Shown: piece by piece, positions 12,101 through 59,734 of the stretch
How the letters are laid out: each line of letters starts with the position of its first letter
Numbering within the stretch: the stretch's first letter is position 1
Assembly (NCBI GenBank): GCA_050873025.1
Contig: JBNMHZ010000015.1
Location: forward strand, 15-64,014
Length of the DNA: 64,000 bases
From: Faecalibacterium sp.
Lineage (GTDB): Bacteria > Bacillota > Clostridia > Oscillospirales > Ruminococcaceae
Reading direction: 5' to 3'
Program-made: the position numbers and the translations under genes
Notes under the pieces: generated by a model
Databases searched by the model: none
What the model was told of the DNA's origin: nothing
Seen by the model: only the letters and a program-made list of their open reading frames with translations

Positions 12101-12302
12101 CGGCATTGGCAAAATGGTGAATGAGCTGACGGTGCAGGGCGTAAGGACGCTGACCTTTGTGACCCCGCAGGGCACCGCAAGCGTGGATGCGCAGGCTCTT
12201 GCAGCACTTTTAGGCGAGGATGGCGAGTTCCGTCTGATCGTGACCGCAGGCGGTGTGGAACTGTGGGTGAACGGTGTGCTGCACAATGAACTTCTGCACT
12301 GA
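9117..12302 (+). CDS. Large secreted repeat protein (adhesin-like): signal peptide, acidic Glu-rich spacer, ~20 GGAGIGGG beta-helix-type repeats, four Cys-rich modules
   Basis: The ORF is open from 9048. A signal peptide (MRLKHPIRQGVAVFAAAGILMTSMAPAALA) starts at the ATG at 9117. Repeats of the form N-I-T-I-x-G-G-x-V-x-A-x-G-G-x-x-x-A-G-I-G-G-G fill 9930-11370. Four GHxW..W.VT..PTCTE.G...R.C..C modules fill 11490-11975. No LPXTG or SLH anchor was seen. Confidence 0.8.
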   Translation: MRLKHPIRQGVAVFAAAGILMTSMAPAALAKDYWIGDGDLEIEYKEDGYYINGTRDEEEDGNITIHGGSSASGQTSEEEQAEPAAEEKLPDAADTVTEDESEKDAAAEEKVTESDEEEPELPQAEEAEESTEAAPEDAEKDAEEAEIPAAEEAEPEKAKEKTPEKTETAPAAAGQAVEEQQEPEEEITYQEEAEEPENTSFVGNVITIINNAVDKILNITFDNVKIDASKKGEAAVTVKGDGDIRIELEGESEVKSGNEHAGIEKNDDASKGTLTITDKDNDGSLKAIGGTSYGAGGAVRTGGAGIGSSGTTDVTEGRNTSNITIEGGTIEAVGGADSAGIGGGAGTDHWDRNAQKTTIAGGNASNITIRGGNVTATAGSAANPDADRGGLVSTGGAGIGGGSHGDGSDITISGGTVTASGAARVDGKFGGAGIGGGNHGNGSNITITGEGTTVNAQGGSAAAGIGGGDGSTRFDGEYRGGNGSGITIEKGSQVTAVSGGQNAEGAAGIGGGMYGNGSDIKINDSKTTVTAEGNYGAGIGGGYGGNGTDITITGGTVTATGGKDSAGIGGGSYKGGSKDNGGKGSDITIRGGNVTAVGGKSGAGIGGGMGGWNKEGTGNGSHITISGSDTVVNATGGASGAGIGGGCYGDGVDITISGGTVHAGTEESDAGAAGIGGGFRYGSSCGGAGTDIKITGGTVNAAGTGGSAGIGGSANSKKESTVTIDASTGDTVVNATTMGGSAAIGNGGDQKDKPNIVREALGEVHKAIVNFFTADGLYKTIHNTAYVGNGAEHHWDSGTVLKAPTCLEKGEMLYTCTVGACGATTTAEIDAAGHSWTDWIVTKTPTCTEAGERQRECTACHKVESETVEPTGHLHTETRNAVSADCTASGYSGDLYCADCDALLEKGESISALGHSWGTWSVTEAPTDTQQGTEERTCERCGSSESRTIAPLGLQKTAPRLHVLDKEEADRFFDTVPNSDVLTVVSEYEQATTLTGIGKMVNELTVQGVRTLTFVTPQGTASVDAQALAALLGEDGEFRLIVTAGGVELWVNGVLHNELLH

Positions 12303-15094: not shown

Positions 15095-15261
15095 TTTGCA
15101 ACAGCAACGACCGCCGCCAGCGGCAAAAAGACTTCCCCCGGCCGGGGAAGATGTCGCGCAGCGGCAAAAAGGAAAATACAGGGAGGAGCTGTTGGAGCCG
15201 CGGCCTGCAAGATACAAGTGCCGCCCAAGGCACGAAGCAGACGCAGGGAGCCGCAACTCGT
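15095..15261 (+). repeat. R3 interspersed repeat (~110-170 nt), copy 1
   Basis: The core ggagctgttggagccgcggcctgcaagatacaagtgccgcccaaggcacgaagcagacgcagggagccgcaac recurs at 35400-35570. It recurs in reverse at 18180-18290 and twice in 49575-49845. Confidence 0.8.
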
Positions 15262-28010: not shown

Positions 28011-29381
28011 TTAGAGGAACACGTACTTGAGGATGAACAGCACGGTCAGCACGTACATCAGGGGGCTGATCTTCTTCTCCTTGGCCTTGCCGGTGACCAC
28101 GTTGATGATGGTCCAGGAGATGACGCCGATGGCGATGCCCTCAGAGATGCTGTAAGCAGTGGGCATGGCCAGAATGGTGAGGAAAGCGGGGATGCCCTCG
28201 CTGGGGTCATTGAAGTCGATCTTAACGGCAGAACCCATCATGTAGAAGCCCACGATGATCAGGGCAGGAGCCGTTGCAAAAGAAGGAATGGTGAGGAACA
28301 GCGGGCTGAAGATGGTAGCCAGCAGGAACAGGATGCCGGTGGTCATGGCAGTCAGACCGGTGCGGCCGCCCTCGGTGACGCCGGAAGCGCTCTCCACGAA
28401 GGTGGTGGTGGTGGAAGTGCCCAGCACAGCGCCTGCGCAGGTGGCAATGGAGTCGGCCATCAGAGCGCCCTTGATGTGGGGCAGCTTGCCGTCCTCGTCC
28501 AGCATGTCGGCCTTGGAAGCAACACCGATCAGGGTGCCCAGGGTGTCGAACAGGTCAACGAACAGGAAGGAGAACATGACGGCGAAGAAGTTCAGGATGC
28601 CCACGCCGGAGAAATCGGTCTTGAACACCTGACCAAAGGTCTTGCCCAGTGCAGAGAAATCGAAGCTGACGAATGCGGTGGGGATGACCGAGTACATACC
28701 GGCATCGGGGTTCGGCACATAGATGCCGGTCAGCTCGCAGAGAATGCCCAGCACCCAGGTGATGAGGATGCCGTACAGGATGCCGCCCTTGACATGCTTG
28801 ACCAGCAGGATGGCAGTGATGACGATGCCCAGCAGAGCCAGGATGGCACCCACGCCCACGCTGGAGAAGGTCTCGCCCTTGAAGTGCTGGTAGGTGACCA
28901 GGGTGGAATCACTGTTGACGATCAGCTTTGCATTCTGCAGGCCGACGAAAGCAACGAACAGGCCGATGCCCACGCTGACGGCGCTCTTGAGGGTCATGGG
29001 GATGGCGTTGAAGATGCCCTCGCGGACATTAGTGAGGGACAGTACGATGAAGATGATGCCCTCCACAAAGACGGCCATCAGGGCCAGCTGCCAGCTATAG
29101 CCCATGGTGAGCACGACGGTGTAGGAGAAGTAGGCGTTCAGGCCCATGCCGGGAGCCAGTGCAAACGGATAGTTGGCAAGCAGTGCCATGAGGGCGGTGC
29201 CAACAAAGGATGCCAGTGCGGTGGCGATCAGAACAGCCTCAGAATCCATGCCGGAAGCGGACAGGATGTTGGGGTTGACCGCAAGGATGTAGGCCATGGT
29301 CATGAAGGTGGTGATACCAGCCATGATCTCGGTCTTAGCATCGGTGTGGTTTTCTTTCAGATGAAAGATGTTTTCTAACAT
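28011..29381 (-). CDS. NCS2-family purine (adenine/guanine/hypoxanthine) permease (AzgA/PbuG-like)
   Basis: 456 aa. The N-terminus FHLKENHTDAKTEIMAGITTFMTMAYILAVNP is typical. About 13 TM segments. An AGGAGG RBS is present. Confidence 0.88.
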   Translation of the reverse strand: MLENIFHLKENHTDAKTEIMAGITTFMTMAYILAVNPNILSASGMDSEAVLIATALASFVGTALMALLANYPFALAPGMGLNAYFSYTVVLTMGYSWQLALMAVFVEGIIFIVLSLTNVREGIFNAIPMTLKSAVSVGIGLFVAFVGLQNAKLIVNSDSTLVTYQHFKGETFSSVGVGAILALLGIVITAILLVKHVKGGILYGILITWVLGILCELTGIYVPNPDAGMYSVIPTAFVSFDFSALGKTFGQVFKTDFSGVGILNFFAVMFSFLFVDLFDTLGTLIGVASKADMLDEDGKLPHIKGALMADSIATCAGAVLGTSTTTTFVESASGVTEGGRTGLTAMTTGILFLLATIFSPLFLTIPSFATAPALIIVGFYMMGSAVKIDFNDPSEGIPAFLTILAMPTAYSISEGIAIGVISWTIINVVTGKAKEKKISPLMYVLTVLFILKYVFL

Positions 29382-29763
29382 GAAGAACCTCCTGATTTCA
29401 AATAAAATAACCCGCCAGTGGGAAACAGCGGGAAAGAACAGAACCTATTGTAGCATTTTTGGCTTGGGTTTGTCCACGGAATAAACACACTTTTTTCATT
29501 TTTTGTCCAAAATTGACGAATGAGTATGACTTTGAAGCTTTTCGGCGGGTTTGCCACAACTTTCCGGTGAGAAAAATGCAGGAATTTTGAGATGCGCGAT
29601 AATGCGCATTATTTTTTACAGTAAAAATATACAAAATGGAATTAATGCTGCGGAATGTACAGCTTGGCCCTGAAAAAGTACGCACTGTTGATGCGGCGTG
29701 GCAGGTGGTATCCTTTTGCCATAGCCCAGCACATCCGGGCGGAAAGGAGCTGGTACCCACATC

Positions 29764-30045
29764 ATGAGCCAGACAAAACAGGCCAATGGGCTGGCAAGCC
29801 TGAGCCGTGCCACCGATACATTGAGCACCCTGCTGGCACAGCAGGTCCGGGAATTGAACGCCCGCCAGAAAGCGGCAAAAAAGGAAGGCTCATCCAATGC
29901 AGGCACCATGAAGGACCTGAAAGAGGCAACAGCGGTGCTCAAGGATCTGGCCGGAGTGGCCAAGACCCTGAACGACCAGGGCGCACAGGCGGAGGAAGCC
30001 GCGTGCGGCGTGGTGCTGCTGCCGGCTGTGGAGGAAGAACCATGA
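29764..30045 (+). CDS. Putative short terminase small subunit-like protein
   Basis: 93 aa, helical/coiled-coil, ending in GVVLLPAVEEEP. Its stop overlaps the terL start (ATGA at 30042-30045). No HTH was seen. An in-frame TAG lies at 29722. Confidence 0.35.
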   Translation: MSQTKQANGLASLSRATDTLSTLLAQQVRELNARQKAAKKEGSSNAGTMKDLKEATAVLKDLAGVAKTLNDQGAQAEEAACGVVLLPAVEEEP

Positions 30046-31490
30046 GCATTGCACAGAGCAGAGTGCCGGTGGTCTGGCGGCCCCAGCCGCGGCAGGCTGA
30101 ATTTATGAGCCGCCCGGAGCCGGAAGCGCTGTACGGCGGCGCGGCAGGCGGAGGCAAAAGCGACGCACTGGTGATCGAAGCGCTGCGGCAGGTGCACATC
30201 CCGCATTACCGGGCGCTGATCCTGCGCAAAACCTACCCGCAGTTGTCCGATCTGGTGGACAAAAGCCAGGTGTACTACCGCAGGGCTTTTCCGCAGGCGC
30301 AGTACAACGCCACGGCCCATGTGTGGACCTTCCCCAGCGGGGCAAAAATTTACTTTGGCTCCATGCAGTACACGAAAGACCGCACCAATTATCAGGGAAA
30401 GGCGTTTGATTTTATCGGTTTTGACGAGCTGACCCACTTTGAATGGGAAGAGTACAGCTACATGATGAGCCGCAACCGTCCCACCGGCCCGGGCACCCGG
30501 GTGTACATGCGGGCCACAACCAATCCCGGCGGCATCGGCCACGGATGGGTGAAGGCCCGGTTCATCACACCGGCCCCGCCCGGCACTCCTATCGTGGAGG
30601 AATACACCGTCAAGCGGCCGGATGGCACTGAGCAGAAGCTGCAAAGGGCGCGGGTGTTCATCCCGTCCAGCATCTTTGATAACCCGGCCCTGCTGGCCAA
30701 TGACCCCGGCTACCTTGCAAGCCTTGCGGGAATGCCGGAAGCCGAAAAGCAGGCCCTGCTCTACGGCAGCTGGGACAGCTTTTCCGGCCAGGTGTTCACC
30801 GAGTGGCGCAACGACCCGGCGCATTATCAGGACCAGCGCTGGACCCATGTGATCGCGCCGTTCACCATCCCGAAGCACTGGACCATCTACCGCGGGTTCG
30901 ACTTCGGTTTTGCAAAGCCCTTCTCGGTGGGGTGGTACGCCGCCGACGAGGACGGCAGGCTTTACCGCATCAAGGAGCTGTACGGCTGCACGGGCCGCCC
31001 CAACGAGGGCCTGCGCATCGACCCGGTGGAGCAGGCCCGGCGCATCCGGGAAGCGGAACAAAATGACCCGATGCTGCGGGGCCGGGTGATCCACGGCATT
31101 GCAGACCCGGCCATTTTTGACGAGAGCCGCGGCGAGAGCATCGCCGCCATGATGGAGCGGGCACCCAATTTCCTGCACTGGTCGCCGGGTGACCACACCC
31201 GCCTTGCAGGCAAGATGCAGTTCCACTACCGGCTGAACTTTGACGCCGACGGCAGGCCGATGCTGCAGGTGTTCAATACCTGCAAGCACTTCATCCGTAC
31301 CATTCCGAACCTTGTGTACGACGAGAGCAATGTGGAGGACATCGACACCCGGCAGGAGGATCATATTTACGATGAATGCCGCTATGTGCTGATGGAGAAT
31401 CCCATCAGCCCGCCGGTGCACTGTGCCGCGCCGCCCATGCCCGACGACCCGCTGGAACTGCACAAGCGGGCAAGATTTTACAGGATCTGA
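30042..31490 (+). CDS. Phage terminase large subunit
   Basis: 482 aa, starting at the ATG at 30042 within the longer ORF 29655-31490. Contains Walker A GGAAGGGKSD, Walker B FDFIGFDELTHF and coupling motif RATTNPGG. The C-terminal nuclease region has acidic residues (IADPAIFDES, EDHIYDECRY). Confidence 0.92.
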   Translation: MSIAQSRVPVVWRPQPRQAEFMSRPEPEALYGGAAGGGKSDALVIEALRQVHIPHYRALILRKTYPQLSDLVDKSQVYYRRAFPQAQYNATAHVWTFPSGAKIYFGSMQYTKDRTNYQGKAFDFIGFDELTHFEWEEYSYMMSRNRPTGPGTRVYMRATTNPGGIGHGWVKARFITPAPPGTPIVEEYTVKRPDGTEQKLQRARVFIPSSIFDNPALLANDPGYLASLAGMPEAEKQALLYGSWDSFSGQVFTEWRNDPAHYQDQRWTHVIAPFTIPKHWTIYRGFDFGFAKPFSVGWYAADEDGRLYRIKELYGCTGRPNEGLRIDPVEQARRIREAEQNDPMLRGRVIHGIADPAIFDESRGESIAAMMERAPNFLHWSPGDHTRLAGKMQFHYRLNFDADGRPMLQVFNTCKHFIRTIPNLVYDESNVEDIDTRQEDHIYDECRYVLMENPISPPVHCAAPPMPDDPLELHKRARFYRI

Positions 31491-31495
31491 CCCTC

Positions 31496-31545
31496 TCAGG
31501 CAGCGCTTGCAGGCGCTGACAGCTTTCCCAAAGGGGCGAGTTTAA
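31496..31545 (-). repeat. R4-type hairpin module inside the phage island (terL-portal spacer)
   Basis: The reverse complement cgcccctttgggaaagctgtcagcgcctgcaagcgctg resembles 151-185 (ccccctcgggggaagctgtcaccgcaggtgac). Confidence 0.45.
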
Positions 31546-31567
31546 AAAGATGAAAAGGAGAAACGCG

Positions 31568-33379
31568 ATGGACGATTACGAGAACGACGCTTTGCCGGTG
31601 GGCGAAGCACAGGTGGCCGAGGCCATGCAGACCTTGCAGCGCTACAAGGCGGGCAAGGCCGCACTGGACAAGCGTCTGGTAGACAACGAGCTGTGGTTCC
31701 GCATGGGCCACTGGAAGAACTACAAGAACCCTATGATGCCCGGCAAGGCCCAGCCTTCCAGCGGGTGGCTGTTCAACAGCATTGCCAACAAGCACGCCGA
31801 CGCCATGGACAACTATCCGGAACCCAACGTGCTGCCCCGGGCGGCAGACGACGAGGACACGGCCCGTGCACTTTCCAGCGTTTTGCCGGTGGTGCTGGAA
31901 CAGGCGGACTACGAGCAGGTGTACAGCGACTGCTGGTGGCGCAAGCTCAAACAGGGCACCGGTGTGACCGGCATCTTCTGGGATGCACAGATGCGCGGCG
32001 GCATTGGCGACATTGCGGTGCGCAGCGTGAACCTGCTAATGCTCTACTGGGAGCCGGGCGTGGCGGATATTCAGGATTCGCCGGACTTTTTCAGCCTGAG
32101 CCTGGAGGATACGGCCCGGCTGTGCGCCCAGTACCCGCAGCTGCGGGGCCGCACGGCAGGCATTGTGGACGTGCCCCGCTACATCCACGACGAAGGGCAG
32201 GACACTGGCTCCAAGAGCGTGGTGGTGGACTGGTACTACAAGCGTCCGGACGAAAATGGCCGCATGGTGCTGCACTACTGCAAGTTCTGCAACGGTGTGG
32301 TGCTGTATGCAAGCCAGAATGACCCGGCACTGGCCGAGCGGGGCCTGTACGACCATGGGCAGTACCCCTTTGTGTTCGACCCGCTGTTTGTGGAAGAGGA
32401 CAGCCCGGCGGGCTTTGGCTACATCGACGTAATGAAGGACTGCCAGACCGCCATCGACAAGATGAACCACGCCATGGACGAGAACGTGCTGCTCTCGGCC
32501 AAGCAGCGGTATGTGCTCAGCGACACGGCAGGCGTGAATGAAGAAGAACTGGCCGATTTCAGCCGGGACATCGTGCATGTGGCGGGCCGCCTGAATGATG
32601 ACAGTTTTCGTCCGCTGCAGACGGCGGGCCTGCAGGGCAACAGCCTGAGCTACCGCCAGAGCCGCATTGAGGAGCTGAAGGAGATCAGCGGCAACCGCGA
32701 TATGACCCAGGGCGGCACCACCGGCGGTGTGACAGCCGCAAGTGCCATTGCGGCATTGCAGGAAGCGGGCAGCAAACTTTCCCGCGATATGCTCAAGAGC
32801 GCTTACCGGGCTTTTGCAAAGCAGTGCTACCTCATCATTGAGCTGATGCGCCAGTTCTACGACGAACAGAGAGTGTTCCGCATCGTGGGAGCGGGCGGCG
32901 AGAATCAGTTTGTGCCTTTCTCAGCTGCGGCACTGCGGGCTGTGCCCGGCGGCAGTGTGGGCGGTGTGGAGCTGGGCAGCCGGGAACCCATCTTTGATAT
33001 CGTGGTGAGCGCCGCCAAGAAGAGCACCTTCAGCCGCCTTTCCCAGAACGAGACGGCCAAGGAGTGCTACCAGCTGGGGTTCTTCCGGCCGGAAAATGCC
33101 GACGCGGCCCTTGCCGCGCTGGACATGATGGACTTTGAAGGTATTGAAAAAGTGCGTCAGCGGGTACAGCAGAACGGCACCCTTGCCCAGCAGCTGGCTC
33201 AGATGCAGCAGCAGATGGCACAGATGACGGCGGTGGTCCAGATGCAGGGCAGTGCTGCAGAACCGGCCCGCAGTGCAGGCGATGCGCCTGCGCAGGACAG
33301 CGGGCAGGCGGTGAAGCTGGCAGGCCTTGGCAATGCACTGCCGGTGGCCGCTGCTGCAAGAGCCATGGATTTCCATTAA
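31568..33379 (+). CDS. Phage portal protein
   Basis: 603 aa from the ATG at 31568 (AAAGGAG RBS). It sits immediately after terL. The size and the acidic/Gln-rich C-terminal extension are consistent with a portal. The family was not identified by eye. Confidence 0.7.
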   Translation: MDDYENDALPVGEAQVAEAMQTLQRYKAGKAALDKRLVDNELWFRMGHWKNYKNPMMPGKAQPSSGWLFNSIANKHADAMDNYPEPNVLPRAADDEDTARALSSVLPVVLEQADYEQVYSDCWWRKLKQGTGVTGIFWDAQMRGGIGDIAVRSVNLLMLYWEPGVADIQDSPDFFSLSLEDTARLCAQYPQLRGRTAGIVDVPRYIHDEGQDTGSKSVVVDWYYKRPDENGRMVLHYCKFCNGVVLYASQNDPALAERGLYDHGQYPFVFDPLFVEEDSPAGFGYIDVMKDCQTAIDKMNHAMDENVLLSAKQRYVLSDTAGVNEEELADFSRDIVHVAGRLNDDSFRPLQTAGLQGNSLSYRQSRIEELKEISGNRDMTQGGTTGGVTAASAIAALQEAGSKLSRDMLKSAYRAFAKQCYLIIELMRQFYDEQRVFRIVGAGGENQFVPFSAAALRAVPGGSVGGVELGSREPIFDIVVSAAKKSTFSRLSQNETAKECYQLGFFRPENADAALAALDMMDFEGIEKVRQRVQQNGTLAQQLAQMQQQMAQMTAVVQMQGSAAEPARSAGDAPAQDSGQAVKLAGLGNALPVAAAARAMDFH

Positions 33380-33395
33380 AAAGGAGGTGAGAACG

Positions 33396-34361
33396 ATGAT
33401 GAAGGTCATTTACAGCGAAATGGATACTCCCGCAGGGATGAGCTGCCGTCTGGAAGCCGCCGGGCACGCAGGCTATGCGCCCGCCGGGCAGGACATCGTG
33501 TGCGCCGGTGCCAGCACCGTGATGCAGGGCCTTGTGTACCTGCTGGCCGGTGAGGAAAATGCCCACAGCGATGCCTTTGACGAGCCGGACGGCCCGCGTG
33601 TGGCCGTGCAGGCGGATGCACCCTGCGAGGACTGGGTACGCGGTGCTTTTGAGCTGGCCAAAGCGGCTTTTGCCCTGCTGGCCGAGCGCTACCCGGAGAA
33701 CGTCCGCTTTGCGGATGTGAGCCAGAGAGGAAAGGAGAGCATGATGGACCTGCAGATGTTTGCCAGTGAAGGCGGTGATGCCGCACCTGCGGCCCCGGCT
33801 CTGAGCGAGGCCCAGGCCCGGCAGGCGGTGGCTTCCGGCACCATGAAGCCCGGCGAAGCCGGAGCATCTGCGGTTCCTGCCGCACCGGCGGCAGAACCGG
33901 CAGAAGTGCAGCCGGAAAAGCCGCAGCCGCAGCTTCCCCCGCAGTGCCCGAAGCAGAACCTGCCGCCGCTGCCCAGCTTTGCCCGGACGGCACAGTCTGC
34001 CGTGCACAGCCTGCACGCCCGCTGGGCCGCAGAGGAAGCGGCTATGCGCCGCAGCCAGCCGGGCTTTAACCTGCAGCAGGAGCTGCGCTGCCCGGAAATG
34101 CGCCGTCTGATGCAGCTGCCCGGCATGAAGGTGCAGGATGCTTACCGTCTGGCCCACTACGACGAAAACCTGCGCAGCGCTGCCCAGGCGGTGGAGCAGG
34201 GCGTGGTGGAGCGCATCCAGCAGCGGGCTGCACGCCCCACCGAAAACGGCATCCGGCCCGGCGGCGCGGCTACCGTGCGTCCGGATGTGGCCAGCATGAC
34301 CCGCGCCCAGCGCGAAGCACTGGAACGCCGTGTGCTCCACGGGGCACAGATCGAATTGTAA
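33396..34361 (+). CDS. Prp-like cysteine protease fused in frame to a scaffolding protein
   Basis: The N-terminal ~110 aa carries the Prp catalytic pattern (EAAGHAGYAPAGQDIVCAGAST). An internal GAAAGGAGAG RBS precedes ATGATG at 33741, beginning MMDLQMFASEGG (Prp cleavage-type motif). This is followed by an Ala/Pro/Gln-rich helical scaffold-like region. Confidence 0.7.
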   Translation: MMKVIYSEMDTPAGMSCRLEAAGHAGYAPAGQDIVCAGASTVMQGLVYLLAGEENAHSDAFDEPDGPRVAVQADAPCEDWVRGAFELAKAAFALLAERYPENVRFADVSQRGKESMMDLQMFASEGGDAAPAAPALSEAQARQAVASGTMKPGEAGASAVPAAPAAEPAEVQPEKPQPQLPPQCPKQNLPPLPSFARTAQSAVHSLHARWAAEEAAMRRSQPGFNLQQELRCPEMRRLMQLPGMKVQDAYRLAHYDENLRSAAQAVEQGVVERIQQRAARPTENGIRPGGAATVRPDVASMTRAQREALERRVLHGAQIEL

Positions 34362-34386
34362 CGACATAAGAGAAAGGAAACCGACT

Positions 34387-35397
34387 ATGAACCACGATTT
34401 CAACGATTTTAACATTCAGCTGTTCGCCGAGAACCTGCAGAATACCACTGCCACCATGTCGCCGGAGATGAAGACTTTCTACGAGAAGCGTCTCATCGAC
34501 CAGGCAGAGCCGCGCCTGGTGCACGACCAGTTTGCGGATTACTATCCCGTTCCCCAGAACGGCGGCAAGACCATCGAGTTCCGCAAGTACGACAGCCTGC
34601 CCAAGGCGGTCACTCCGCTGACCGAGGGCGTGACCCCGGACGGCCAGGCCCTGAACGTGACCACCATCACCAGCGACCTGCACCAGTACGGCGGCTGGAC
34701 CCCGCTGACTGATGTGCTGCAGATGACCGCCATCGACAACAATGTGGTGCAGGCCACCCGCGTGCTGGCAAGCCAGGCGGGCCGCACCATGGACAGCATC
34801 ACCCGCGATGTGCTGGCTGGCGGCACCAATGTGATCTATGCACCCAAGATCGGCACCGACGGCACCGAGACTGCAGTTGCCAGCCGCAAGGCGCTGGACA
34901 AGACCTGCACCCTGACCCCGAAGCTGTTCTTCCAGGCGGCGGCGCAGCTGGGTGCCATGAACGCAGACCCCATCGGTGACAGCTACATTGCCATCATCCA
35001 CCCCTATGCCGCCTACGACCTGAAGACCAGCAAGGAATTCATTGAGGTGCACAAGTACGCCGACCCGGAGACCATGTTCCGCGGCGAGATCGGCAAGCTG
35101 GGCAACATCCGCTTCATTGAGACCAGCGAAGCCAAGATCTGGAAGGATTCTACCTGTCCGGACGGTCTGGCGGTGTTCGGTACGCTGGTGCTGGGTGCCC
35201 ATGCCTACGGCGTCACCGAGCTGGAAGGCGGCGGCCTGGAACACATCGTCAAGCAGCTGGGCTACGGCGATGACCCGCTGAACCAGCGTGCTTCCGTGGG
35301 CTGGAAGGGGATGCGTGCGGCCGAGCGTCTGGTAGAGCAGTATATGGTGCGCATTGAGAGTGCGTCCAGCTATTCTGCCACCGCGGCCGCAAATTAA
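34387..35397 (+). CDS. Major capsid protein (HK97-fold type; resembles the N4-gp56-like family)
   Basis: 336 aa. The N-terminal propeptide has NIQLFAEN (LQxF|A motif). The position after the scaffold, the size, and conserved blocks (GGKTIEFRKYDSL, LTEGVTPDG, AIIHPYAAYDL, GNIRFIETSEAK) support the call. Confidence 0.75.
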   Translation: MNHDFNDFNIQLFAENLQNTTATMSPEMKTFYEKRLIDQAEPRLVHDQFADYYPVPQNGGKTIEFRKYDSLPKAVTPLTEGVTPDGQALNVTTITSDLHQYGGWTPLTDVLQMTAIDNNVVQATRVLASQAGRTMDSITRDVLAGGTNVIYAPKIGTDGTETAVASRKALDKTCTLTPKLFFQAAAQLGAMNADPIGDSYIAIIHPYAAYDLKTSKEFIEVHKYADPETMFRGEIGKLGNIRFIETSEAKIWKDSTCPDGLAVFGTLVLGAHAYGVTELEGGGLEHIVKQLGYGDDPLNQRASVGWKGMRAAERLVEQYMVRIESASSYSATAAAN

Positions 35398-35399
35398 CC

Positions 35400-35570
35400 C
35401 TCTCGATCTCACCGTCCGCCGATTGGCGGCGCGGTTCGACAGCTCCCCCAAAGGGCAACGGCGACGACTGCCGCCTGCGGCGGAAACAGGAAGGAGCTGT
35501 TGGGGCAGCGGCCAGCAGGACACGAGTGCCGCACAAGGCACGAAGTGGACGCTGGGAGCCGCAACCGGGG
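35400..35570 (+). repeat. R3 interspersed repeat, copy 2, inside the phage island
   Basis: ggagctgttggggcagcggccagcaggacacgagtgccgcacaaggcacgaagtggacgctgggagccgcaac matches 15186-15257. Confidence 0.8.
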
Positions 35571-35596
35571 AGCTTTTGTAAAAGAAAGGAGATAAA

Positions 35597-35812
35597 ATGG
35601 CTGAAAAGAAAAATGTGCGCATCCGGCTGTTCAAGGACAACAGCCGCTATAAGGGTGACCTGTTCGTGAGTGTGAACGGCGTAAATTATAAGATCCGCCG
35701 CGGCGTTGAAGTGGAGGTTCCGCCCGAGGTGGCCGAAGTGCTGGAACACAGCCAGATGCAGGACGAGCTGACCGCCGCCCGCATTGCGGCTGCGGAAAAT
35801 GCTGCACAGTAA
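35597..35812 (+). CDS. Small phage structural-module protein (hypothetical)
   Basis: 71 aa with a GGAG RBS, co-directional and downstream of the MCP. Confidence 0.5.
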   Translation: MAEKKNVRIRLFKDNSRYKGDLFVSVNGVNYKIRRGVEVEVPPEVAEVLEHSQMQDELTAARIAAAENAAQ

Positions 35813-35879
35813 ACAGCAGCTGCCCGGCGGGGAGACTTGGCCCGGCCGGGCTTTTCTATAAAAAAGGAGATGAGCATTT

Positions 35880-36263
35880 ATGACCGTAGGACAGGCGCTG
35901 GAACGCGCCGAAGAGCTGCGCCCGGGCAGCCGCATTGCACTGGCCACCCGGCAGGCATGGCTGCGCGAAGCAGACGCCATGCTGCGCCAGCGATTTTTTA
36001 AAAACAGCATCACGGATGCCTACGACGCCGTTGGCGCAGACCTTGCGTGGGACGACGGCCTGCAGGACGAGGATGTGCTGCTGGCACCGGAACCTTTTGA
36101 TGCGATGTACCCGCATTATCTGTGCGCCATGACCGATGCATCACTGGGCGAGACCGACCGCTATGCCGGGGAGCAGGCCCAGTACAACAGCCTGCTGGCA
36201 GAGCTGGCGGCATGGCTGCGGCGCAGTTACCCGCCCAGAGCGGGCGTGCAGTGGCACTGCTAA
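35880..36263 (+). CDS. Hypothetical phage protein (possible head completion/adaptor)
   Basis: 127 aa with an AAAGGAG RBS. The possible function is inferred from position only. Confidence 0.45.
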   Translation: MTVGQALERAEELRPGSRIALATRQAWLREADAMLRQRFFKNSITDAYDAVGADLAWDDGLQDEDVLLAPEPFDAMYPHYLCAMTDASLGETDRYAGEQAQYNSLLAELAAWLRRSYPPRAGVQWHC

Positions 36264-36276
36264 GGAGGGGAGAAGC

Positions 36277-38160
36277 ATGGTTCTGGCAAACAGAGCAAAA
36301 GTTCAGAACAGCCGCAGCCTTGTGCGGGTGTTCGGCGGGCTGAACGAGACCTACGCCTGTTCAGAAGCCGAGTACAGCGCAGGCGTGAACTTTTCTTCCC
36401 GGGATTTCCCGGCGCTGAGCACCCGCAAGCCCCGCCGGAAGCTGCGGGAACTGACCGGCCTGAACGGCATGTATCACCTGAACGGACTGCTGACCGTCTG
36501 CGGCAGAGACCTGACCTACACGCCGGATGCCGCTGGGGCTGACACCGTGGTCTGTACGGACGCTGTGACGGATGGCAGAAAAGCGCTGGTGGGCATCGGC
36601 ACAAAGATCCTGATCTTCCCGGACAAGCTTGCCTTTGATACGGCAGATGGCAGTGTTTCGGCGCTGGGTGCAGCGTGGCAGGCCGAGGGCAGGAGCGTGC
36701 AGTTTGCGCCCTGCGATGCCGCCGGCAAGACCTACAAGGTGAGCAGTTACGGCAAAGATGAGCCGGAAAAGCCCACGGACGGTCAGCTCTTTTTAAAGGT
36801 GGAGGACGAGGAGCACCCCTGGGCCAGCACCAGCACACTGGAAGAATACAGTGCATCCTCCGGAAACTGGACGACGGTGCATCTGGATTACTGCCGCATT
36901 ACGGCGGCAGGCGTACAGAAGCTGTTTGCCCAGTGGGACACCGTGACCGTGGCGGGCACGGCAGCGCAGCAGGCCGATATGTGGACCAAGCTGGACGGTG
37001 ACCTTGTGGTGTACGATGTGCTGGAAAACGGCCTTAGGGTAAAGGTGAACCCGGAAGGAGACTGTTTCTACGGCACACTGGTGCAGGGCGCAGACCGCGC
37101 CCAGTGGACCAGCATGGATGGCAAAAAGACCCGCACCATTGCGGTGAGCACATCGGTGCAGATGGAGCGCCGTGTGCCGGATCTTGATTATATCACCGAG
37201 TGCGACAACCGTGTGTGGGGCTGCTGCAGCAAAGAAAACGTGATCTATGCCTGTAAGCTGGGAGACCCCACCAACTGGTTCAGCTACCGGGGCATTGCGG
37301 CAGACAGCTATGCGGTGACGGTGGGCAGCGATGGAGCATTTACCGGTGCAGCCACCTGCATGGGCTATGCGCTGTTCTTTAAAGAGAACACGCTGCATAA
37401 GCTCTATGGCTCAAAGCCTTCGGATTTTCAGCTCACCTCGCTGCGCTGCCGGGGTGTGGCAAAAAATGCTGCCCGCAGCCTGTGCGTGCTGAACGAGACG
37501 CTGTATTATCTCTCGCCGGACGGTGTGATGGCATGGGACGGCAGCATCCCTACCAAGGTGTCCGGTGCACTGAATGTCAGCCGCCTTTCCAATGTACAGA
37601 ATGCAGTGGGCGGTGCGCTGGATGGCCGCTACTACCTGCATGTGTCCCGTGCGGCGGAAGCCGGAAATGAAGCAAGGCTGCTTGTATACGATACCGAGCG
37701 CGCCCTCTGGAGCGAGGAGGACGTGTGCTCTTACGAGATGACCAGTACCGGTGGGCAGCTTTATCTGTGGGACGGACAGGCACTGTGGGCTGCAGACCCC
37801 AGCCGGGAAGCCGACTGGCAGACCACCGACGGCGTGGAGAAAAAGCTCAATTTTGAGCTGACCACCGGCGATATCGGTGTGGATGGTGCCGAGGACCGGT
37901 ATCTTTCCCGGCTGACCCTGCGGCTGGATGCCGAGTGCAGCAGCACTGTGGAAGTGGCCGTAAGCTACGACGGCGGCCCCTGGGAGGTGGTGGCAGGCGT
38001 GGCGGCGCAGGAAAGACGCCGCTGTTATGACCTGCCGTTTATCCCACGGCGTCACGGTACGCTGCGGCTGCGCCTGCGCGGCAAAGGGCAGATCACCCTG
38101 CGCAGCATTGCAAAAACAATGGCCGCTGCAAGGGGCGGCATTGCAGGCGGGGAGGTGTGA
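36277..38160 (+). CDS. Large phage structural protein with beta-propeller-like repeats (possible podovirus-type tail hub/nozzle)
   Basis: 627 aa from the ATG at 36277 (TAAGGAGGGGAG RBS). Blade-like motifs recur: LYYLSPDGVMAWDG, GRYYLHV, RLLVYDTERALW, GGQLYLWDGQALW. Confidence 0.5.
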   Translation: MVLANRAKVQNSRSLVRVFGGLNETYACSEAEYSAGVNFSSRDFPALSTRKPRRKLRELTGLNGMYHLNGLLTVCGRDLTYTPDAAGADTVVCTDAVTDGRKALVGIGTKILIFPDKLAFDTADGSVSALGAAWQAEGRSVQFAPCDAAGKTYKVSSYGKDEPEKPTDGQLFLKVEDEEHPWASTSTLEEYSASSGNWTTVHLDYCRITAAGVQKLFAQWDTVTVAGTAAQQADMWTKLDGDLVVYDVLENGLRVKVNPEGDCFYGTLVQGADRAQWTSMDGKKTRTIAVSTSVQMERRVPDLDYITECDNRVWGCCSKENVIYACKLGDPTNWFSYRGIAADSYAVTVGSDGAFTGAATCMGYALFFKENTLHKLYGSKPSDFQLTSLRCRGVAKNAARSLCVLNETLYYLSPDGVMAWDGSIPTKVSGALNVSRLSNVQNAVGGALDGRYYLHVSRAAEAGNEARLLVYDTERALWSEEDVCSYEMTSTGGQLYLWDGQALWAADPSREADWQTTDGVEKKLNFELTTGDIGVDGAEDRYLSRLTLRLDAECSSTVEVAVSYDGGPWEVVAGVAAQERRRCYDLPFIPRRHGTLRLRLRGKGQITLRSIAKTMAAARGGIAGGEV

Positions 38161-38163
38161 TGA

Positions 38164-38349
38164 ATGGCAAGCGTAATGGGCATCAATAAGATCGGCCTGC
38201 CCAAGCTCAGCGAGAACATGGACCCGGAGGACGCCCGCGCCCTGCGCAGCTACCTGTACCAGATGCAGGAGCAGCTGCAGTACGTGCTGTGCAACCTTGA
38301 CACCGAGAATCTGTCCGATGAGCTGCGTGCAAAGCTGCAGAATTTATAA
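38164..38349 (+). CDS. Small hypothetical phage protein
   Basis: 61 aa with a GGGGAGG RBS. There is a 3-nt gap after the upstream stop. Confidence 0.45.
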   Translation: MASVMGINKIGLPKLSENMDPEDARALRSYLYQMQEQLQYVLCNLDTENLSDELRAKLQNL

Positions 38350-38363
38350 GGAAAGGATTTTTT

Positions 38364-39722
38364 ATGGCAAACAAAAAGAAACAGGACGATGTGCTTGCCG
38401 CTGTACAGGCACAGACCGAAGGCGGCCAGCCCGCCGTACAGAGCAGTTATTCTGCTGCAGGGCTGGGCAGCCGGTCGGATGTGGAAAACGCACTGGCAAA
38501 TGCCAGTTACAAGCCCAGCCAGACCGTGACCGATGCGGCCGATGCCCTGAAGGAATGGCAGGCGAACCGCCCGGGTGACTACCAGAGCAGCTATCAGGAG
38601 CGGATCGACCAGCTTTTGAACCAGCTGCTGCAGCGCAATACGTTCCAGTACAGCTACACCAGAGACCCTCTCTACCGCCAGTACGAGCAGAACTATCTGC
38701 AGAATGCCTACAATGCCAGCGCGGACGCTGCAGCGCAGGCAGCAGCCCTTACCGGCGGCTACGGCTCCAGCTATGCTGCCAGTGTTGCCCAGCAGGCTTA
38801 CCAGCAGCAGATCGGTGCACTGAGCAATGCGATCCCCACGCTGTACAGCCTGGCGCTGGATACTTACACCAGCGGCGGCAACGAGCTGGTAAGCCAGCTG
38901 GACCAGCTGAACAGCAGTGAGCAGGACGCCCAGCAGCTGTATAACAATAAGCTCTCGGATTACTACACCCAGCTGCAGCAGAGGGGCGAAGCCTACAACA
39001 GCGCCTATGAACAGGATTACGGCCAGTATCAGGACTACCTGAGCCAGCTGGGAGCCCTGCACGATTACTACACTGCGCAGGAACAGCAGCAGGCGGCACA
39101 GCGCCAGCAGCGGTTCAACAACATCATGACGGCACTGGGCGTTCTGGGCGATGTGGTGCAGATCGCCCTCAGCGGCACTACCGGCATCGGTTCCATGATC
39201 AGCGGCCTGCTGAACACCGGCTATAATATCTACTCCGGCAACCGCCAGTATGAGGCAAGCCGTGCGGATGCCCAGTGGAACCAGCAGCTGCAGGAGCGGC
39301 AGTATCAGGACAGCCTCAACCAGCAGCGCTACGAAAATGAGGCCAGCGAACGCGAATATCAGGATAAACTCAACCAGCAGAAATTCAATAATGACGTCAC
39401 CAGCCAGAAGCTGAATATTGCGCTGGGCGAGTGGAACCTGAAAAAGTCCAGTGCCGCCCAGAAGGCAAGCCGGGCAGGCAGTGCAGCATCCAGCGGCAGC
39501 GACACGGGCAGTGCAGACGGCGCATCTGCCGGCACGGCCAGCCGCGCGGTGGGCAGCGCGACCCGCCTTGGAAGCGATACTTCCCGGAACGTTACGGTGC
39601 CCTATATGGCAATGCTGATGCGCAGCCAGGGCAGAAGCGATACCAGCATCAGCAGTGCACTGCGCAGAGAAGGCTATTCTGCAGCGGAGATCGCACAGAT
39701 CCTGCAGCAGATGAAGCGCTGA
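38364..39722 (+). CDS. Gln/Tyr/Asn/Ser-rich phage protein with a central hydrophobic segment (possible internal/ejection or tape-measure-like protein)
   Basis: 452 aa of low-complexity QQ/YY-rich helical sequence. It contains the hydrophobic IMTALGVLGDVVQIALSGTTGIGSMISGLL. Confidence 0.45.
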   Translation: MANKKKQDDVLAAVQAQTEGGQPAVQSSYSAAGLGSRSDVENALANASYKPSQTVTDAADALKEWQANRPGDYQSSYQERIDQLLNQLLQRNTFQYSYTRDPLYRQYEQNYLQNAYNASADAAAQAAALTGGYGSSYAASVAQQAYQQQIGALSNAIPTLYSLALDTYTSGGNELVSQLDQLNSSEQDAQQLYNNKLSDYYTQLQQRGEAYNSAYEQDYGQYQDYLSQLGALHDYYTAQEQQQAAQRQQRFNNIMTALGVLGDVVQIALSGTTGIGSMISGLLNTGYNIYSGNRQYEASRADAQWNQQLQERQYQDSLNQQRYENEASEREYQDKLNQQKFNNDVTSQKLNIALGEWNLKKSSAAQKASRAGSAASSGSDTGSADGASAGTASRAVGSATRLGSDTSRNVTVPYMAMLMRSQGRSDTSISSALRREGYSAAEIAQILQQMKR

Positions 39723-39755
39723 GTGCGGTCGTCTGCATGAAATAAGGCAAAATAA

Positions 39756-39816
39756 AAAGCATGTGCACACCCGGCGGAACAGCCGTTCCGGAAAGATGTG
39801 TACATGCTTTTGTTTT
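39756..39816 (+). terminator. Terminator closing the phage island
   Basis: Long hairpin AAAGCATGTGCACA...TGTGTACATGCTTT with an inner CGGAAC/GTTCCG stem, followed by TGTTTTA. Confidence 0.6.
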
Positions 39817-39870
39817 ATGGTAAAAATGGTGAGGGATCGGGTACTGCTCGACACCCACCGAATGAAAAGT

Positions 39871-39942
39871 TTCCCGGTAGATATTTCTACGGGTTAGCCC
39901 GCTGTGCGCCGCCGTCTTGCTCGAGTTCCACTGGGCACCCAA
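39871..39942 (+). repeat. Unit A: arm sequence plus a degenerate copy of the tRNA-His 3' end (att-like)
   Basis: 39919-39942 (GCTCGAGTTCCACTGGGCACCCAA) matches tRNA-His GTTCGAGTCCCACTGGGCACCCCA at 21 of 24 positions. The upstream arm (ggtagatatttctacgggtt...cgctgtgcgccgccg) is shared with unit B. Confidence 0.7.
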
Positions 39943-39954
39943 ATAAAAAAATCC

Positions 39955-39981: not shown

Positions 39982-40097
39982 TTCCCTTGGTAGACATTCC
40001 TAAGGGTTGGAATCCGCGGGCTAACCAAAGCCATACTATGGCTTTGGTTGCGTCGCTGTGCGCCGCCGCCCTGTTCGAGCCCCACTGGGCACCACCA
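39982..40097 (+). repeat. Unit B: arm sequence plus a second copy of the tRNA-His 3' end (att-like)
   Basis: 40073-40097 (GTTCGAGCCCCACTGGGCACCACCA) differs from the tRNA-His 3' end at only 2 positions. Together with the real gene it forms an ~40-bp inverted repeat around the terminator at 40101-40136. Confidence 0.75.
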
Positions 40098-40100
40098 ACA

Positions 40101-40136
40101 AAAAAAGTCCGCTGCGTTAAACAGCGGACTTTTTGG
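40101..40136. terminator. Bidirectional terminator downstream of tRNA-His
   Basis: AAAAAAAGTCCGCTG-cgttaaa-CAGCGGACTTTTT. Confidence 0.8.
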
Positions 40137-40214
40137 TGGGGTGCCCAGTGGGACTCGAACCCACGGTCTCCAGATCCACAATCTGGCGCGTTAACCGACT
40201 ACGCTATGGGCACC
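40137..40214 (-). tRNA. tRNA-His (anticodon GTG), with G-1 and encoded CCA
   Basis: The reverse complement is GGTGCCCATAGCGTAGTCGGTTAACGCGCCAGATTGTGGATCTGGAGACCGTGGGTTCGAGTCCCACTGGGCACCCCA. The cloverleaf folds, and the anticodon loop is TTGTGGA. Confidence 0.93.
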
Positions 40215-49574: not shown

Positions 49575-49845
49575 TACGCGTTTCTGTTCGGGTAACGGCT
49601 GCAGCGCCTCTCTTGCGGTGCCCTGCGTCTGCAAGGCCCTTGGTGCGGGCCTTGCATCCTGCAGACCGCGGCGCCAAAAGTTGCTCCCTGAACATCAAGC
49701 CCTAACGCTTTTCGTTCGGAGAACGGCAGCAGCGCCCTCTTGTGGCTCCCTGCATCCGCTTCGTGCCTTGGTGCGGCACTCGCGTCTTGCAGGCCACGGC
49801 GCCAAAAATTTCTCCCTGTTTCGGCCACTGGCCGCGGTCGAAATT
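49575..49845 (-). repeat. Two tandem R3 repeat copies (49575-49690 and 49700-49845) inside the nan operon
   Basis: The reverse complements match the R3 core at 15186-15257. They fill the 307-nt nanA-permease spacer. Confidence 0.8.
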
Positions 49846-56850: not shown

Positions 56851-56981
56851 AAACACAGACCGTTCTAGCATCCAGAATCTACCATTTTGCCGGTAAAAAT
56901 CCATTGTGTGTGCGTCATATTTGTACAGGATACAGAACGGCACAAATGAATGCTAGAGTGAAAAGCGTGTTAAAAAGTGTG

Positions 56982-58070: not shown

Positions 58071-58185
58071 CCCCTTCCTGTGTCAATGATTATAGGTCAG
58101 TGAGTTTTTCTCAAAAATCGGAAAAACCTTGACAGCTGAATTTTCAGCCACCACCCGCCGCCTGCTGTGCTCTGCGCAGTAGGCT

Positions 58186-58617
58186 TTATTTTTTATCGGG
58201 GTCTGGTTCTGCCAACTTTTGATACGCTGGAATCTGTGCAAGCTCTTTTACACGCTCTACGGCGATTCGTTGTCCATCTTCATTCATCTGATTTAATGAG
58301 TACTCTATTTTGCGTAGGTTGTCGTTTAAGGGAGTATATGCTGGAATCTCGGAATATTCTTTCCCTCCCAATGCTTGCGCCAGTGTATAAATTATTGCTT
58401 TATCTTTTTGTTCAGCTGGATAAAAGGAAAACGGTCCCTCACCTACGCCAAGTACTTCTGCAATTTTTTCCAGTATACTTGTGTTTGGCTCTCTTGCACC
58501 GCTTTCATATTGACGAATAGTAATAGTTGCAACGCCGACGGCCTTTGCAAGTTCTTCCTGTGTCATTTTCTTCTGATTTCGGAAGTGCTTTATCCATGCG
58601 CCCAGTTCTTTACTCAT
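58186..58617 (-). CDS. XRE-family HTH transcriptional regulator (repressor-like)
   Basis: 143 aa. The HTH is MTQEELAKAVGVATITIRQYESGAREP. Confidence 0.85.
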   Translation of the reverse strand: MSKELGAWIKHFRNQKKMTQEELAKAVGVATITIRQYESGAREPNTSILEKIAEVLGVGEGPFSFYPAEQKDKAIIYTLAQALGGKEYSEIPAYTPLNDNLRKIEYSLNQMNEDGQRIAVERVKELAQIPAYQKLAEPDPDKK

Positions 58618-59704: not shown

Positions 59705-59734
59705 TTTTGTGGGCGGTGGTTTCCGCCTTACAAA

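Follow-up and report, generated by a model that had tools for sequence, protein, structure and literature searches.

The ten phage-type genes at this locus raise the question of whether a compact set of head genes in a Faecalibacterium genome is a deletion relic, the capsid module of a satellite, or a chromosomally domesticated, gene transfer agent (GTA)-like particle module. We conclude that the block is very probably this genome's copy of FpGTA operon I, that is, the head, DNA-packaging and proximal-tail operon of a GTA-like element (Borodovich et al., Nat Commun 2026, PMC12946183; bioRxiv 10.1101/2024.11.15.623857). This assignment rests on orthology to a named strain together with matching architecture and annotations. 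The GTA system itself is already known, having been described in 2024-2026, and the observation made here is real.

ORF calling within the window, i.e. the whole 64 kb stretch of DNA that was analysed, revealed ten tightly packed, co-directional ORFs (g1 to g10) on the plus strand at 29764-39722 (9,959 bp), and independent gene calls gave an identical architecture. The ATGA overlap at 30042-30045 and the 3-nt gap at 38161-38163, on which the initial annotation had based its description of the packing, are both present, and its statement that the ORFs are intact with good ribosome-binding sites holds for all ten genes, each of which has an ATG start and a GGAG/AGGA-type site. The proposal that the base composition equals that of the flanks holds in part: it is similar, with a GC3 inside the host range, but not identical (61.6% GC in the block versus 57.5% in the flanks). 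Upstream of g1, at 29675-29714 (+), lies the promoter-like motif AAAGTACGCACTG-N-TGGTATCCT, which resembles an extended -10 region and occurs once in the window against zero copies expected by chance. In 33 class-A loci it occurs once per locus, 50-90 nt 5' of g1 and irrespective of the left flank; no viral or class-B locus has it, class B being uncultivated 33-40 kb Faecalibacterium podophages in IMG/VR that are related to the block. The motif is predicted to function as a promoter. The operon is closed by a terminator-like long hairpin at 39750-39816 (+), 3' of g10, in which inverted repeat I17 is followed by a T-run; a terminator had been noted after the last gene. Host-type repeats had also been reported inside the block, and one host intergenic repeat (35455-35566) is indeed inserted in the g5-g6 spacer, outside the machinery, with further copies in the window at 15178-15257 and 49744-49795. 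It takes unrelated positions in other loci, and the same spacer measures only ~15 nt in locus L005.

The first three genes specify packaging and portal functions. The TerS-like g1 (29764-30045, 93 aa) lies directly 5' of TerL, which it overlaps through the ATGA, and gave no Pfam, PHROG or NCBIfam match and no recognisable DNA-binding domain. A weak alignment places its conserved C-terminal GVVLLPxVE at the very end of a Terminase_2 TerS encoded by the related locus L079, and the equivalent CDS in FpGTA is described as a TerS without a DNA-binding domain (PMC12946183); dN/dS is 0.24. The 482 aa TerL (g2, 30042-31490; dN/dS 0.06) matches phrog_979/phrog_2 (E 6e-62) and Pfam Terminase_6N and, as had been noticed, carries the Walker A motif GGAAGGGKS (residues 32-40, nt 30135-30161). 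The portal, g3 (31568-33379, alternative start 31550; dN/dS 0.11), is of the P22/SU10 type, with matches to PF16510 P22_portal (E 8e-33), PF23899 SU10_portal and phrog_156 (E 1e-78).

Profile matches likewise back the portal, the Prp-scaffold fusion and the MCP as they were originally named. In the 321 aa g4 (33396-34361), a Prp cysteine-protease domain (PF04327 Peptidase_Prp, residues ~13-105) is fused to a scaffolding protein, the C-terminal half matching phrog_13908; class C has Prp as a gene of its own. A Prp-type motif, DLQMF|A, stands at the junction (residues 118-123, nt 33747-33764) and is kept in nearly all loci. The MCP, g5 (34387-35397; dN/dS 0.07), belongs to the N4-gp56 family with an HK97 fold (TIGR04387, 316 bits against a cut-off of 60; phrog_1357, E 1e-85), and possesses a second Prp-type site, NIQLF|A, at residues 9-14 (nt 34411-34428), part of an N-terminal motif that is conserved across loci. 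Given the precedent of Prp cleavage in 80alpha (PMC5744158), both g4 and g5 are predicted to be cut at these conserved motifs.

The remaining five genes include the short tail. The 71 aa g6 (35597-35812), a conserved virion-module protein, matches phrog_15239 (E 9e-23), is 96-100% identical in close species and has a dN/dS of about 0; we would guess at a role in head completion or decoration. Protein g7 (35880-36263, 127 aa) matches phrog_12105 (E 1.5e-17), and gave no PDB sequence match; in classes A, B and C alike its gene invariably separates those of the MCP and the nozzle, a position that makes it a probable head-to-tail adaptor. The 627 aa g8 (36277-38160) is a podovirus-type tail nozzle or hub. 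Its C-terminal half matches phrog_511, and although its AF2 model is poor (pLDDT 51), the best six chains in a Foldseek search of the PDB with this low-confidence model were all from podovirus tail complexes (E1004, VP1, Sf6, P22 and T7; E 6e-5 to 5e-4), with SU10 at rank 12. The g8 orthologue was annotated as "tail nozzle (PDB 8eap)" and detected in particles (PMC12946183). No HMM match was obtained for the 61 aa g9 (38164-38349; dN/dS 0.07), which resembles the N-terminus of C30, a 250 aa protein that follows the nozzle in class-C loci; in L064-L068 its tblastn matches coincide with the beginning of C30. The Q/Y-rich, all-helical g10 (38364-39722, 452 aa) gave no family or PDB match; its AF2 model shows long helices at low confidence and a better defined small C-terminal helical domain. 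Homologues of g10 in class-B phages sit just 5' of a giant protein of 1400-1660 aa, and in purified particles its orthologue RCH50844.1 ranks third in protein abundance (PMC12946183). It is possibly an internal, ejection or plug protein.

No regulator or lysis gene was found to be hidden among the ten proteins by the profile-HMM searches, and annotation of the 64 kb window together with these searches located no integrase, regulator, replication, lysis or fibre genes near the block; fibre and lysis genes of the operon II type are absent from the entire window. To this extent the functions first listed as missing are missing. Tail genes, on the other hand, are not, g8 being a short-tail nozzle, and since it is of this podovirus type, a tape measure, tube or sheath would not be expected; HMM and Foldseek searches revealed no tube or tape-measure gene in the block. 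The lack of long-tail genes reflects short-tailed ancestry and not loss.

The neighbours of the block are host metabolic genes only. A Xan_ur_permease gene occupies 28011-29381 (-), its start codon 382 nt from that of g1 (about 380 nt had been estimated), and in the present clade permease and transporter genes separate g1 from its usual neighbour, an M16 peptidase. To the right, the junction of tRNA-His, tRNA-Arg, PAP2, DUF1643 and Bmp is kept in most human-clade species. The tRNA-His gene proper lies at 40137-40213 (-). Copies of its 3' end had been noted after the block, and two partial segments (39920-39939 and 40074-40093) do exist, but they are inverted relative to the gene and are therefore not classical att duplicates of the direct-repeat type. 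An unrelated low-GC element lies 17 kb downstream, and the sole integrase of the window (56982-58061, -) is part of it. The closest loci come from Faecalibacterium species; at the level of the flanking host proteins, identity to F. langellae and related MAGs is 90-99%.

Comparison across genomes was based upon an MCP scan, which returned 142 matches, of which 80 loci were retained. The g1-g10 block is present in about 55 of these 80, in Faecalibacterium species from humans and chickens. Forty-nine loci span it, and in 41 of them no gene of the ten falls below 80% of full length. In human-associated species the block usually adjoins the identical tRNA-His/tRNA-Arg junction. Related genomes carry the ten-gene block and not a full prophage, and the suggestion of purifying selection is borne out for 10 of 10 genes (dN/dS 0.00-0.24 at dS 0.37-0.92), values matching those of flanking host genes. 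There is also a single-locus variant of ~14 kb that includes lysis genes of its own.

The link to FpGTA is provided by F. prausnitzii APC923/61-1 (PRLE01000004; our locus L060), which is among the strains with FpGTA operon I (PMC12946183). It contains the ten genes in identical order with 61-95% amino acid identity, and shares the tRNA-His/Arg-PAP2-DUF1643-Bmp right flank with the window. The published operon I comprises ten ORFs in about 10 kb (10.5 kb) and occurs in 12 of 12 Faecalibacterium genomes tested (PMC12946183). Genus, size, gene count, order and annotations agree, including an N4-gp56 MCP, a Prp protein between portal and MCP and, after the nozzle, a helical protein annotated as "TolA" in the published operon, and neither has replication or integration genes. 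The left flank and the host repeat between g5 and g6 differ; nothing essential does, and the window would hold another species' copy. F. prausnitzii ATCC 27766 produces ~40 nm particles with 8.4-8.9 kb of random host DNA, seen as a ~9 kb band, and nanopore reads of virus-like particles show random host DNA for Faecalibacterium MAGs (PMC12946183). Portal, "N4-gp56 family" MCP and a "TolA"-annotated protein dominate the particle proteome, accompanied by the "Prp" protein, terminase and nozzle, all from consecutive loci (PMC12946183). A second operon (fibre, RBP, holin, M15 endolysin) is found in 5 of 12 strains, in APC918/95b at ~125 kb from operon I (PMC12946183). Faecal virome contigs labelled "Bacteriophage sp." (MT836324, MT837972 and others) contain the block with host flanks, which is compatible with random packaging of host DNA without proving it.

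The same gene order, TerS-TerL-portal-scaffold-MCP-small proteins-large tail protein, is common to class B and to the Pagevirus podophages of Bacillus megaterium (Page, Pony, Palmer), the MCP being 68-72% and 34% identical (to Page), respectively, and class B also has the Prp-scaffold fusion and homologues of g6-g9 and g10. Their genomes, however, are those of complete phages and encode regulators, a replication initiator, fibres, lysis functions and a giant virion protein of 1400-1660 aa; the scaffold measures 450-505 aa, as opposed to 321 aa, and a g1-type TerS is lacking. Colinearity with the left ~10 kb of Page-like podophages and with the class-B phages, the rest of such a phage being missing, is what would be expected of an inert remnant of a podovirus prophage that happens to be intact. 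We consider this origin without function hardly credible, since a relic should not be conserved across the genus: the ten genes are intact in about 55 species with host-like dN/dS at dS up to 0.9 and no relaxation of selection, the promoter-like motif is conserved, and the orthologous proteins are the main components of purified particles (PMC12946183). The same relatedness could mean that the block is a resident capsid module acting mainly through class-B podophages, supplying or poisoning head components or borrowing tails and fibres as capsid-forming satellites do, and not a self-sufficient GTA. Class-B prophages do coexist with it in the same genomes, with structural proteins 50-79% identical, and L062/L081 looks like a recombinant between the two; moreover, no tails were seen on the particles and operon II was found in only those 5 of 12 strains (PMC12946183). 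This too is improbable, if somewhat less so, for the block is chromosomally fixed, with no integrase, replication module or pac-specific TerS, and in ATCC 27766 the particles carried operon II fibre proteins and no other prophage proteins were detected (PMC12946183). A satellite in its own right would be expected to be mobile and to possess both an integrase and a replication module; none of these was found, and the reading is therefore unsupported. Like the block, the cf-PICIs have their capsid and packaging genes in a compact module that lacks lysis and tail-fibre genes. In addition, they encode an integrase and modules for regulation and replication, and they spread between hosts with their own genome as the packaged DNA. 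No such mobility, regulatory or replication features were seen here, and a cf-PICI-like element was rejected, there being no integrase with att sites, no regulatory or replication modules, no variable insertion sites, and tRNA-His fragments that are inverted.

A GTA-like module that fills its heads need not deliver their contents, and the particles might instead benefit the host through release of DNA or nutrients, or through a PBSX-like effect on competitors. DNA delivery to recipients has been demonstrated for no FpGTA, as its describers themselves discuss, cultures lyse in late stationary phase, and the PBSX analogy was raised by the same authors (PMC12946183). We regard this as unlikely, though the most plausible of the alternatives, because the portal, the nozzle and the probable ejection-type protein are under strong purifying selection, and a short non-contractile tail makes an unlikely killing device. 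The domesticated GTA-like module is the reading supported by the match to PMC12946183, by conservation and by purifying selection. The RcGTA-type elements of Alphaproteobacteria are likewise vertically inherited, host-flanked head-packaging clusters having a TerS without DNA specificity. Their head is too small for the encoding genes and their accessory and lysis genes lie at other loci, as would be the case for the block. RcGTA is siphovirus-like, with a tube and tape measure, whereas the block, of podovirus-like build, combines a P22-type portal with a nozzle and shows no architectural homology to it; proof of gene transfer exists for RcGTA but not for FpGTA.

As a GTA-like module, the operon would be transcribed from the conserved promoter about 60 nt 5' of g1. 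Scaffold g4 and capsid protein g5 would, by homology, assemble on the P22-type portal g3 into a procapsid, whereupon the Prp domain may free the scaffold at DLQMF|A and shorten the capsid protein by 13 residues through cleavage at NIQLF|A. TerL and the TerS-like g1 would then package host DNA of any sequence into the small head, as demonstrated in related strains (8.4-8.9 kb) and presumed here. The g7 adaptor, the g8 nozzle, g9 and the abundant g10 would close off the head and make up a short tail stub, with fibres, receptor-binding protein, holin and endolysin supplied from the separate operon II, as shown in some strains. The operon, with its 9,959 bp, exceeds the 8.4-8.9 kb packaged by related strains, from which the capacity value is taken, so the element could not move itself in one particle; it is inherited vertically. 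The Prp sites, the promoter-like motif, the podophage family and the ~14 kb variant appear to be additional to PMC12946183 as read here. For Faecalibacterium, the locus represents a phage-derived cluster of structural genes, fixed in the chromosome, passed on vertically and kept under purifying selection.

Ten genes make up the block, all on the plus strand, and according to the gene calls made in the window each starts with ATG and has a Shine-Dalgarno site. They specify a TerS-like protein (g1, 29764–30045), TerL (g2, 30042–31490), a portal protein (g3, 31568–33379), a Prp-scaffold fusion (g4, 33396–34361) and the major capsid protein, MCP (g5, 34387–35397). These are followed by a small gene downstream of that for the MCP (g6, 35597–35812), g7 (35880–36263), the nozzle gene (g8, 36277–38160), g9 on its 3' side (38164–38349) and the last gene of the block, g10 (38364–39722). 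Packaging, portal, protease and capsid genes are present, and genes for mobility, replication, fibres and lysis are absent from the block. Several details of the initial annotation hold: the overlap of g1 and g2 at 30042–30045, the 3-nt gap between g8 and g9 (38161–38163), the Walker A motif of TerL, a first gene some 380 nt from a purine permease (382 nt separate g1 from the divergent Xan_ur_permease gene) and a terminator after the last gene, the closing hairpin of which lies at 39750–39816. Base composition is similar to that of the flanks, though not the same as noted initially: GC3 falls within the host range, and GC content is 61.6% in the block versus approximately 57.5% in the flanks.

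Genes were called across the whole window and scanned against Pfam. Outside the block, the interval 1–56.9 kb contains ordinary host functions only. Among these are RimM, TrmD, HPr, UvrC, GpsA, several transporters, an M16 peptidase, MgtE, a sugar ABC system, GltS and the permease noted above; downstream of tRNA-His and tRNA-Arg come PAP2, DUF1643, a Bmp lipoprotein and a sialic-acid catabolism cluster. Amid the housekeeping genes lies one for a 1084 amino acid protein with Beta_helix_3 repeats (9048–12302), probably a surface protein. The region 56900–64000 is a low-GC (0.40–0.50) mobile element unrelated to the block, coding for a CD1107-like mobile-element protein, a PDDEXK transposase and a tyrosine integrase (56982–58061, minus strand). 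The latter is the single integrase of the window, in keeping with the earlier observation that the block has none.

Between g10 and the tRNA genes are two repeats of about 52 nt (39900–39951 and 40054–40105, plus strand), 154 nt apart, each holding a partial T-arm/acceptor 3' half of tRNA-His and followed on its 3' side by a hairpin. Two tRNA-His 3' fragments thus exist past g10 as initially annotated, but their orientation is opposite to that of the real tRNA-His gene (40137–40213, minus strand). They were considered as att sites of an ancestral prophage and rejected, since they are inverted and at most 250 nt from that gene. An Rfam search of these repeats gave no match; similar tRNA-like repeats occur in the g10–tRNA spacer of other species. 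The host-type intergenic repeat noticed inside the block is also real: a Faecalibacterium repeat of about 120 nt occupies 35455–35566 in the g5–g6 spacer, with other copies in the window at 15178–15257 and 49744–49795.

The block matches a system that has already been described. Borodovich et al. (Nat Commun 2026, PMC12946183; preprint November 2024) found that faecal virus-like particles contain Faecalibacterium chromosomal fragments of 8.4–8.9 kb, packaged at random in the manner of a gene transfer agent (GTA). Their 'FpGTA I' operon (10.5 kb, ten ORFs) codes for a TerS without a DNA-binding domain, TerL, portal, scaffold, MCP and conserved hypothetical proteins. The particles obtained from F. 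prausnitzii ATCC 27766 were capsid-like, measured about 40 nm, showed no tails and contained approximately 9 kb of DNA. A second operon (5.5 kb; baseplate, fibre, RBP, holin and endolysin genes) was detected in five strains only and lies about 125 kb away in APC918/95b. The authors consider FpGTA to be the first GTA-like element of the human gut microbiome, and also the first whose morphology resembles that of podoviruses; they state that DNA delivery was not demonstrated (PMC12946183).

The proteomics table for ATCC 27766 (PMC12946183) lists consecutive loci, among them RCH50844 ('TolA', the third most abundant; equivalent to g10), RCH50846 ('tail nozzle, PDB 8eap'; g8), RCH50850 ('ribosomal-processing cysteine protease Prp'; g4), RCH50851 (portal; g3) and RCH50852 (terminase; g2). 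Its order and names agree with g10, g8, g5, g4, g3 and g2 of the block, orthologues of which were thereby shown to be present in particles. Furthermore, locus L060, from strain APC923/61-1 of the same study, is orthologous gene for gene to the block. Exact look-ups of the MCP and TerL of the window returned no record, and that of the nozzle returned a single 4.6 kb read-assembly contig. Based upon the orthology to L060 and the matching gene order and annotations, the block is filed here as, most probably, the FpGTA operon I of this species. Others have shown that the orthologues in other strains form particles containing about 9 kb of random host DNA, and we infer the same activity in this strain. 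Since the block, at 9,959 bp, exceeds the reported length of packaged DNA, it could not transfer itself in one particle.

Five GenBank contigs that derive from human faeces sampled in Mexico and bear the title 'UNVERIFIED: Bacteriophage sp.' (MT836324, MT836159, MT837972, MT836701 and MT836456; loci L001–L003) carry the block with host flanks, two of them matching the query in host-flank DNA only. These could represent either chromosomal DNA packaged by the GTA and recovered in virome preparations, or contamination.

A comparative scan with the MCP as query against one genome per prokaryotic species gave 142 matches, from which 80 loci were retained. Nearly all are from Faecalibacterium; a few are from metagenome-assembled genomes (MAGs) named otherwise, yet with Faecalibacterium flanks. 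The ten block proteins and flanking proteins were mapped onto these loci, and the genes called and clustered, yielding three classes. Class A, found in about 55 species from human and chicken sources, consists of exactly g1–g10 with host genes on either side, an architecture reproduced by independent gene calls on other contigs. All ten genes reach at least 80% of their window lengths in 41 of the 49 class A loci that span the whole block; most of the exceptions come down to the calling of start codons or to frameshifts in MAGs. Most human-clade species have the same right junction (tRNA-His, tRNA-Arg, PAP2, DUF1643, Bmp, metallophosphoesterase). The left neighbour is variable, being in many species a phospholipase-C-like/MFS/M16-peptidase trio; this lies at 12.5–18.1 kb in the window, with about 11.6 kb of transporter genes between it and g1.

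Nei-Gojobori analysis of the window against eleven close species gave dN/dS values of 0.00–0.24 for all ten block genes (dS 0.37–0.92), as compared to 0.05–0.21 (dS 0.34–0.78) for the flanking host genes. The block is therefore under purifying selection, and its neutral decay is excluded by these ratios, a check that the initial annotation had asked for together with the comparison across related genomes. The GTA-like reading initially proposed is supported by the FpGTA match, conservation across the genus and this selection. The feature noted initially is thus genuine, and it belongs to a system already known from the literature.

The ancestry of the module appears to lie among short-tailed phages. 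The closest isolated relatives of the MCP are in the Pagevirus podophages of Bacillus megaterium (34% identity); none of the isolated Faecalibacterium phages in GenBank matches the module. The first third of the phage Page genome is colinear with the block (TerS, TerL, a small gene, a 'podovirus-type' portal, a scaffold-sized gene, MCP and three small genes, then a 730 amino acid tail protein), but Page continues with spikes, a 1679 amino acid protein, and lysis and replication genes. The AlphaFold2 model of g8 is poor (pLDDT 51, from a shallow alignment of sequences 76–90% identical) and only the ranking of its fold matches was used: the top six PDB matches are podovirus tail-complex chains (E1004, VP1, Sf6, P22 and T7), with SU10 at rank 12. 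Together with the published annotation, these led us to drop the PHROG label 'internal virion protein' in favour of nozzle. The absence of tape-measure, tube and sheath genes noted initially is thus attributable to short-tailed ancestry rather than to loss. Searches of the PDB with g7, g8 and g10 sequences and profiles gave no matches. In the g10 model (pLDDT 47; shallow alignment, 64–88% identity), nothing is seen beyond long helices and a small domain at the C-terminus; g10 is a putative internal or plug protein and g7 a putative adaptor.

In staphylococcal phage 80alpha, Prp trims 13–14 N-terminal residues off both the capsid protein and the scaffold (PMC5744158). Almost every locus of classes A and B conserves a motif, (D/N)(L/I)Q(L/M/F)F/A, where the slash before the final A marks the predicted cut, at MCP residues 9–14 (NIQLF/A) and at the Prp-scaffold junction of g4 (DLQMF/A, residues 118–123); class C encodes Prp in a separate gene. 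The element's own Prp domain would thus free the scaffold and trim the MCP. The 120-nt repeat also occurs in frame within g4, just past this motif, in four or five other strains (L001 4961–5086, L008 9256–9381, L013 5655–5780 and L014 7784–7909). There it lengthens the protein by about 47 amino acids and recreates the cleavage site as a second LQLFA, at which the insert is predicted to be removed along with the leader.

The motif AAAG-N2-CRCRCTS-N14-22-TGNTANNHT occurs once in the window (29675–29714), where none is expected by chance, and once per locus in 33 class A loci, 50–90 nt upstream of g1 irrespective of the left flank; none was found in the phage loci. It may be a dedicated promoter of the operon. 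The conserved C-terminal GVVLLPxVE of g1 aligns, weakly, with the extreme C-terminus of a Terminase_2 TerS from a related Cuneatibacter locus, which fits a TerS whose DNA-binding domain has been lost and whose tail for contacting TerL remains.

Class C is a single locus of about 14 kb in eight Faecalibacterium MAGs (L059 and L063–L069, e.g. L068 665–14328), one labelled roe deer rectum, and all eight lack a class A copy. It opens with a divergent XRE-type HTH gene and continues with g1, TerL, portal, Prp, scaffold, MCP, g6, g7 and nozzle, a 250 amino acid protein with a g9-like N-terminus, a 'tail protein' (phrog_372/DUF859), a g10-like protein, a GH25 endolysin with a peptidoglycan-binding domain, a 99 amino acid protein and a holin. 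The flanking genes are those of the host: AspS on the upstream side and, on the downstream side, a trigger-factor-like PPIase, a ferredoxin and an SBP5 protein. The locus looks like a self-contained GTA-like variant.

Class B comprises uncultivated podophages and prophages of Faecalibacterium (L071–L084 and L086–L165) that have the head and proximal-tail module of the block. They share g2–g10 with it at 34–79% identity. Upstream they possess further genes, a replication initiator and a small activator among them; their scaffold is longer (450–505 amino acids), their g10 is split, and they encode a giant protein of 1400–1660 amino acids. The family is abundant in IMG/VR as 33–40 kb contigs, no isolated GenBank phage belongs to it, and several genomes hold classes A and B together. 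One MAG, UMGS1404 (L062 1–21020 and L081), has a class A left flank and A-like g1–g4 fused to class B-like g5–g10 and the giant phage protein, with A-like g5–g10 on a separate small contig. This reflects either recombination of a class B phage into the GTA operon or a chimeric assembly of the MAG.

What may extend the published description is confined to the Prp sites, the promoter motif and classes B and C. We tentatively propose, rating it slightly below an even chance, that the Faecalibacterium GTA is one state of a still-connected three-state family. One state may be the free 33–40 kb podophages, often resident alongside in the same genomes, for which at least one MAG suggests recombination into the GTA operon. 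Another may be the self-contained locus of about 14 kb, which occupies a fixed place in the host chromosome of other Faecalibacterium lineages and does not co-occur with the ten-gene form. The remaining one may be the split form of the window, with a dedicated conserved promoter and capsid maturation by the element-encoded Prp protease.

The copy in the window adds no new kind of system and shows that FpGTA is recognizable from sequence alone. The host genus of FpGTA is among the most abundant in the human gut; the ten-gene element is conserved far beyond the twelve genomes first studied, chicken-associated species included, and its genes evolve in the manner of host genes. The Prp sites, putative promoter, phage relatives and single-locus variant offer experimental handles on maturation, regulation and origin. 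If the three-state proposal is true, one could trace within a single genus how a podovirus was domesticated step by step to become a GTA.
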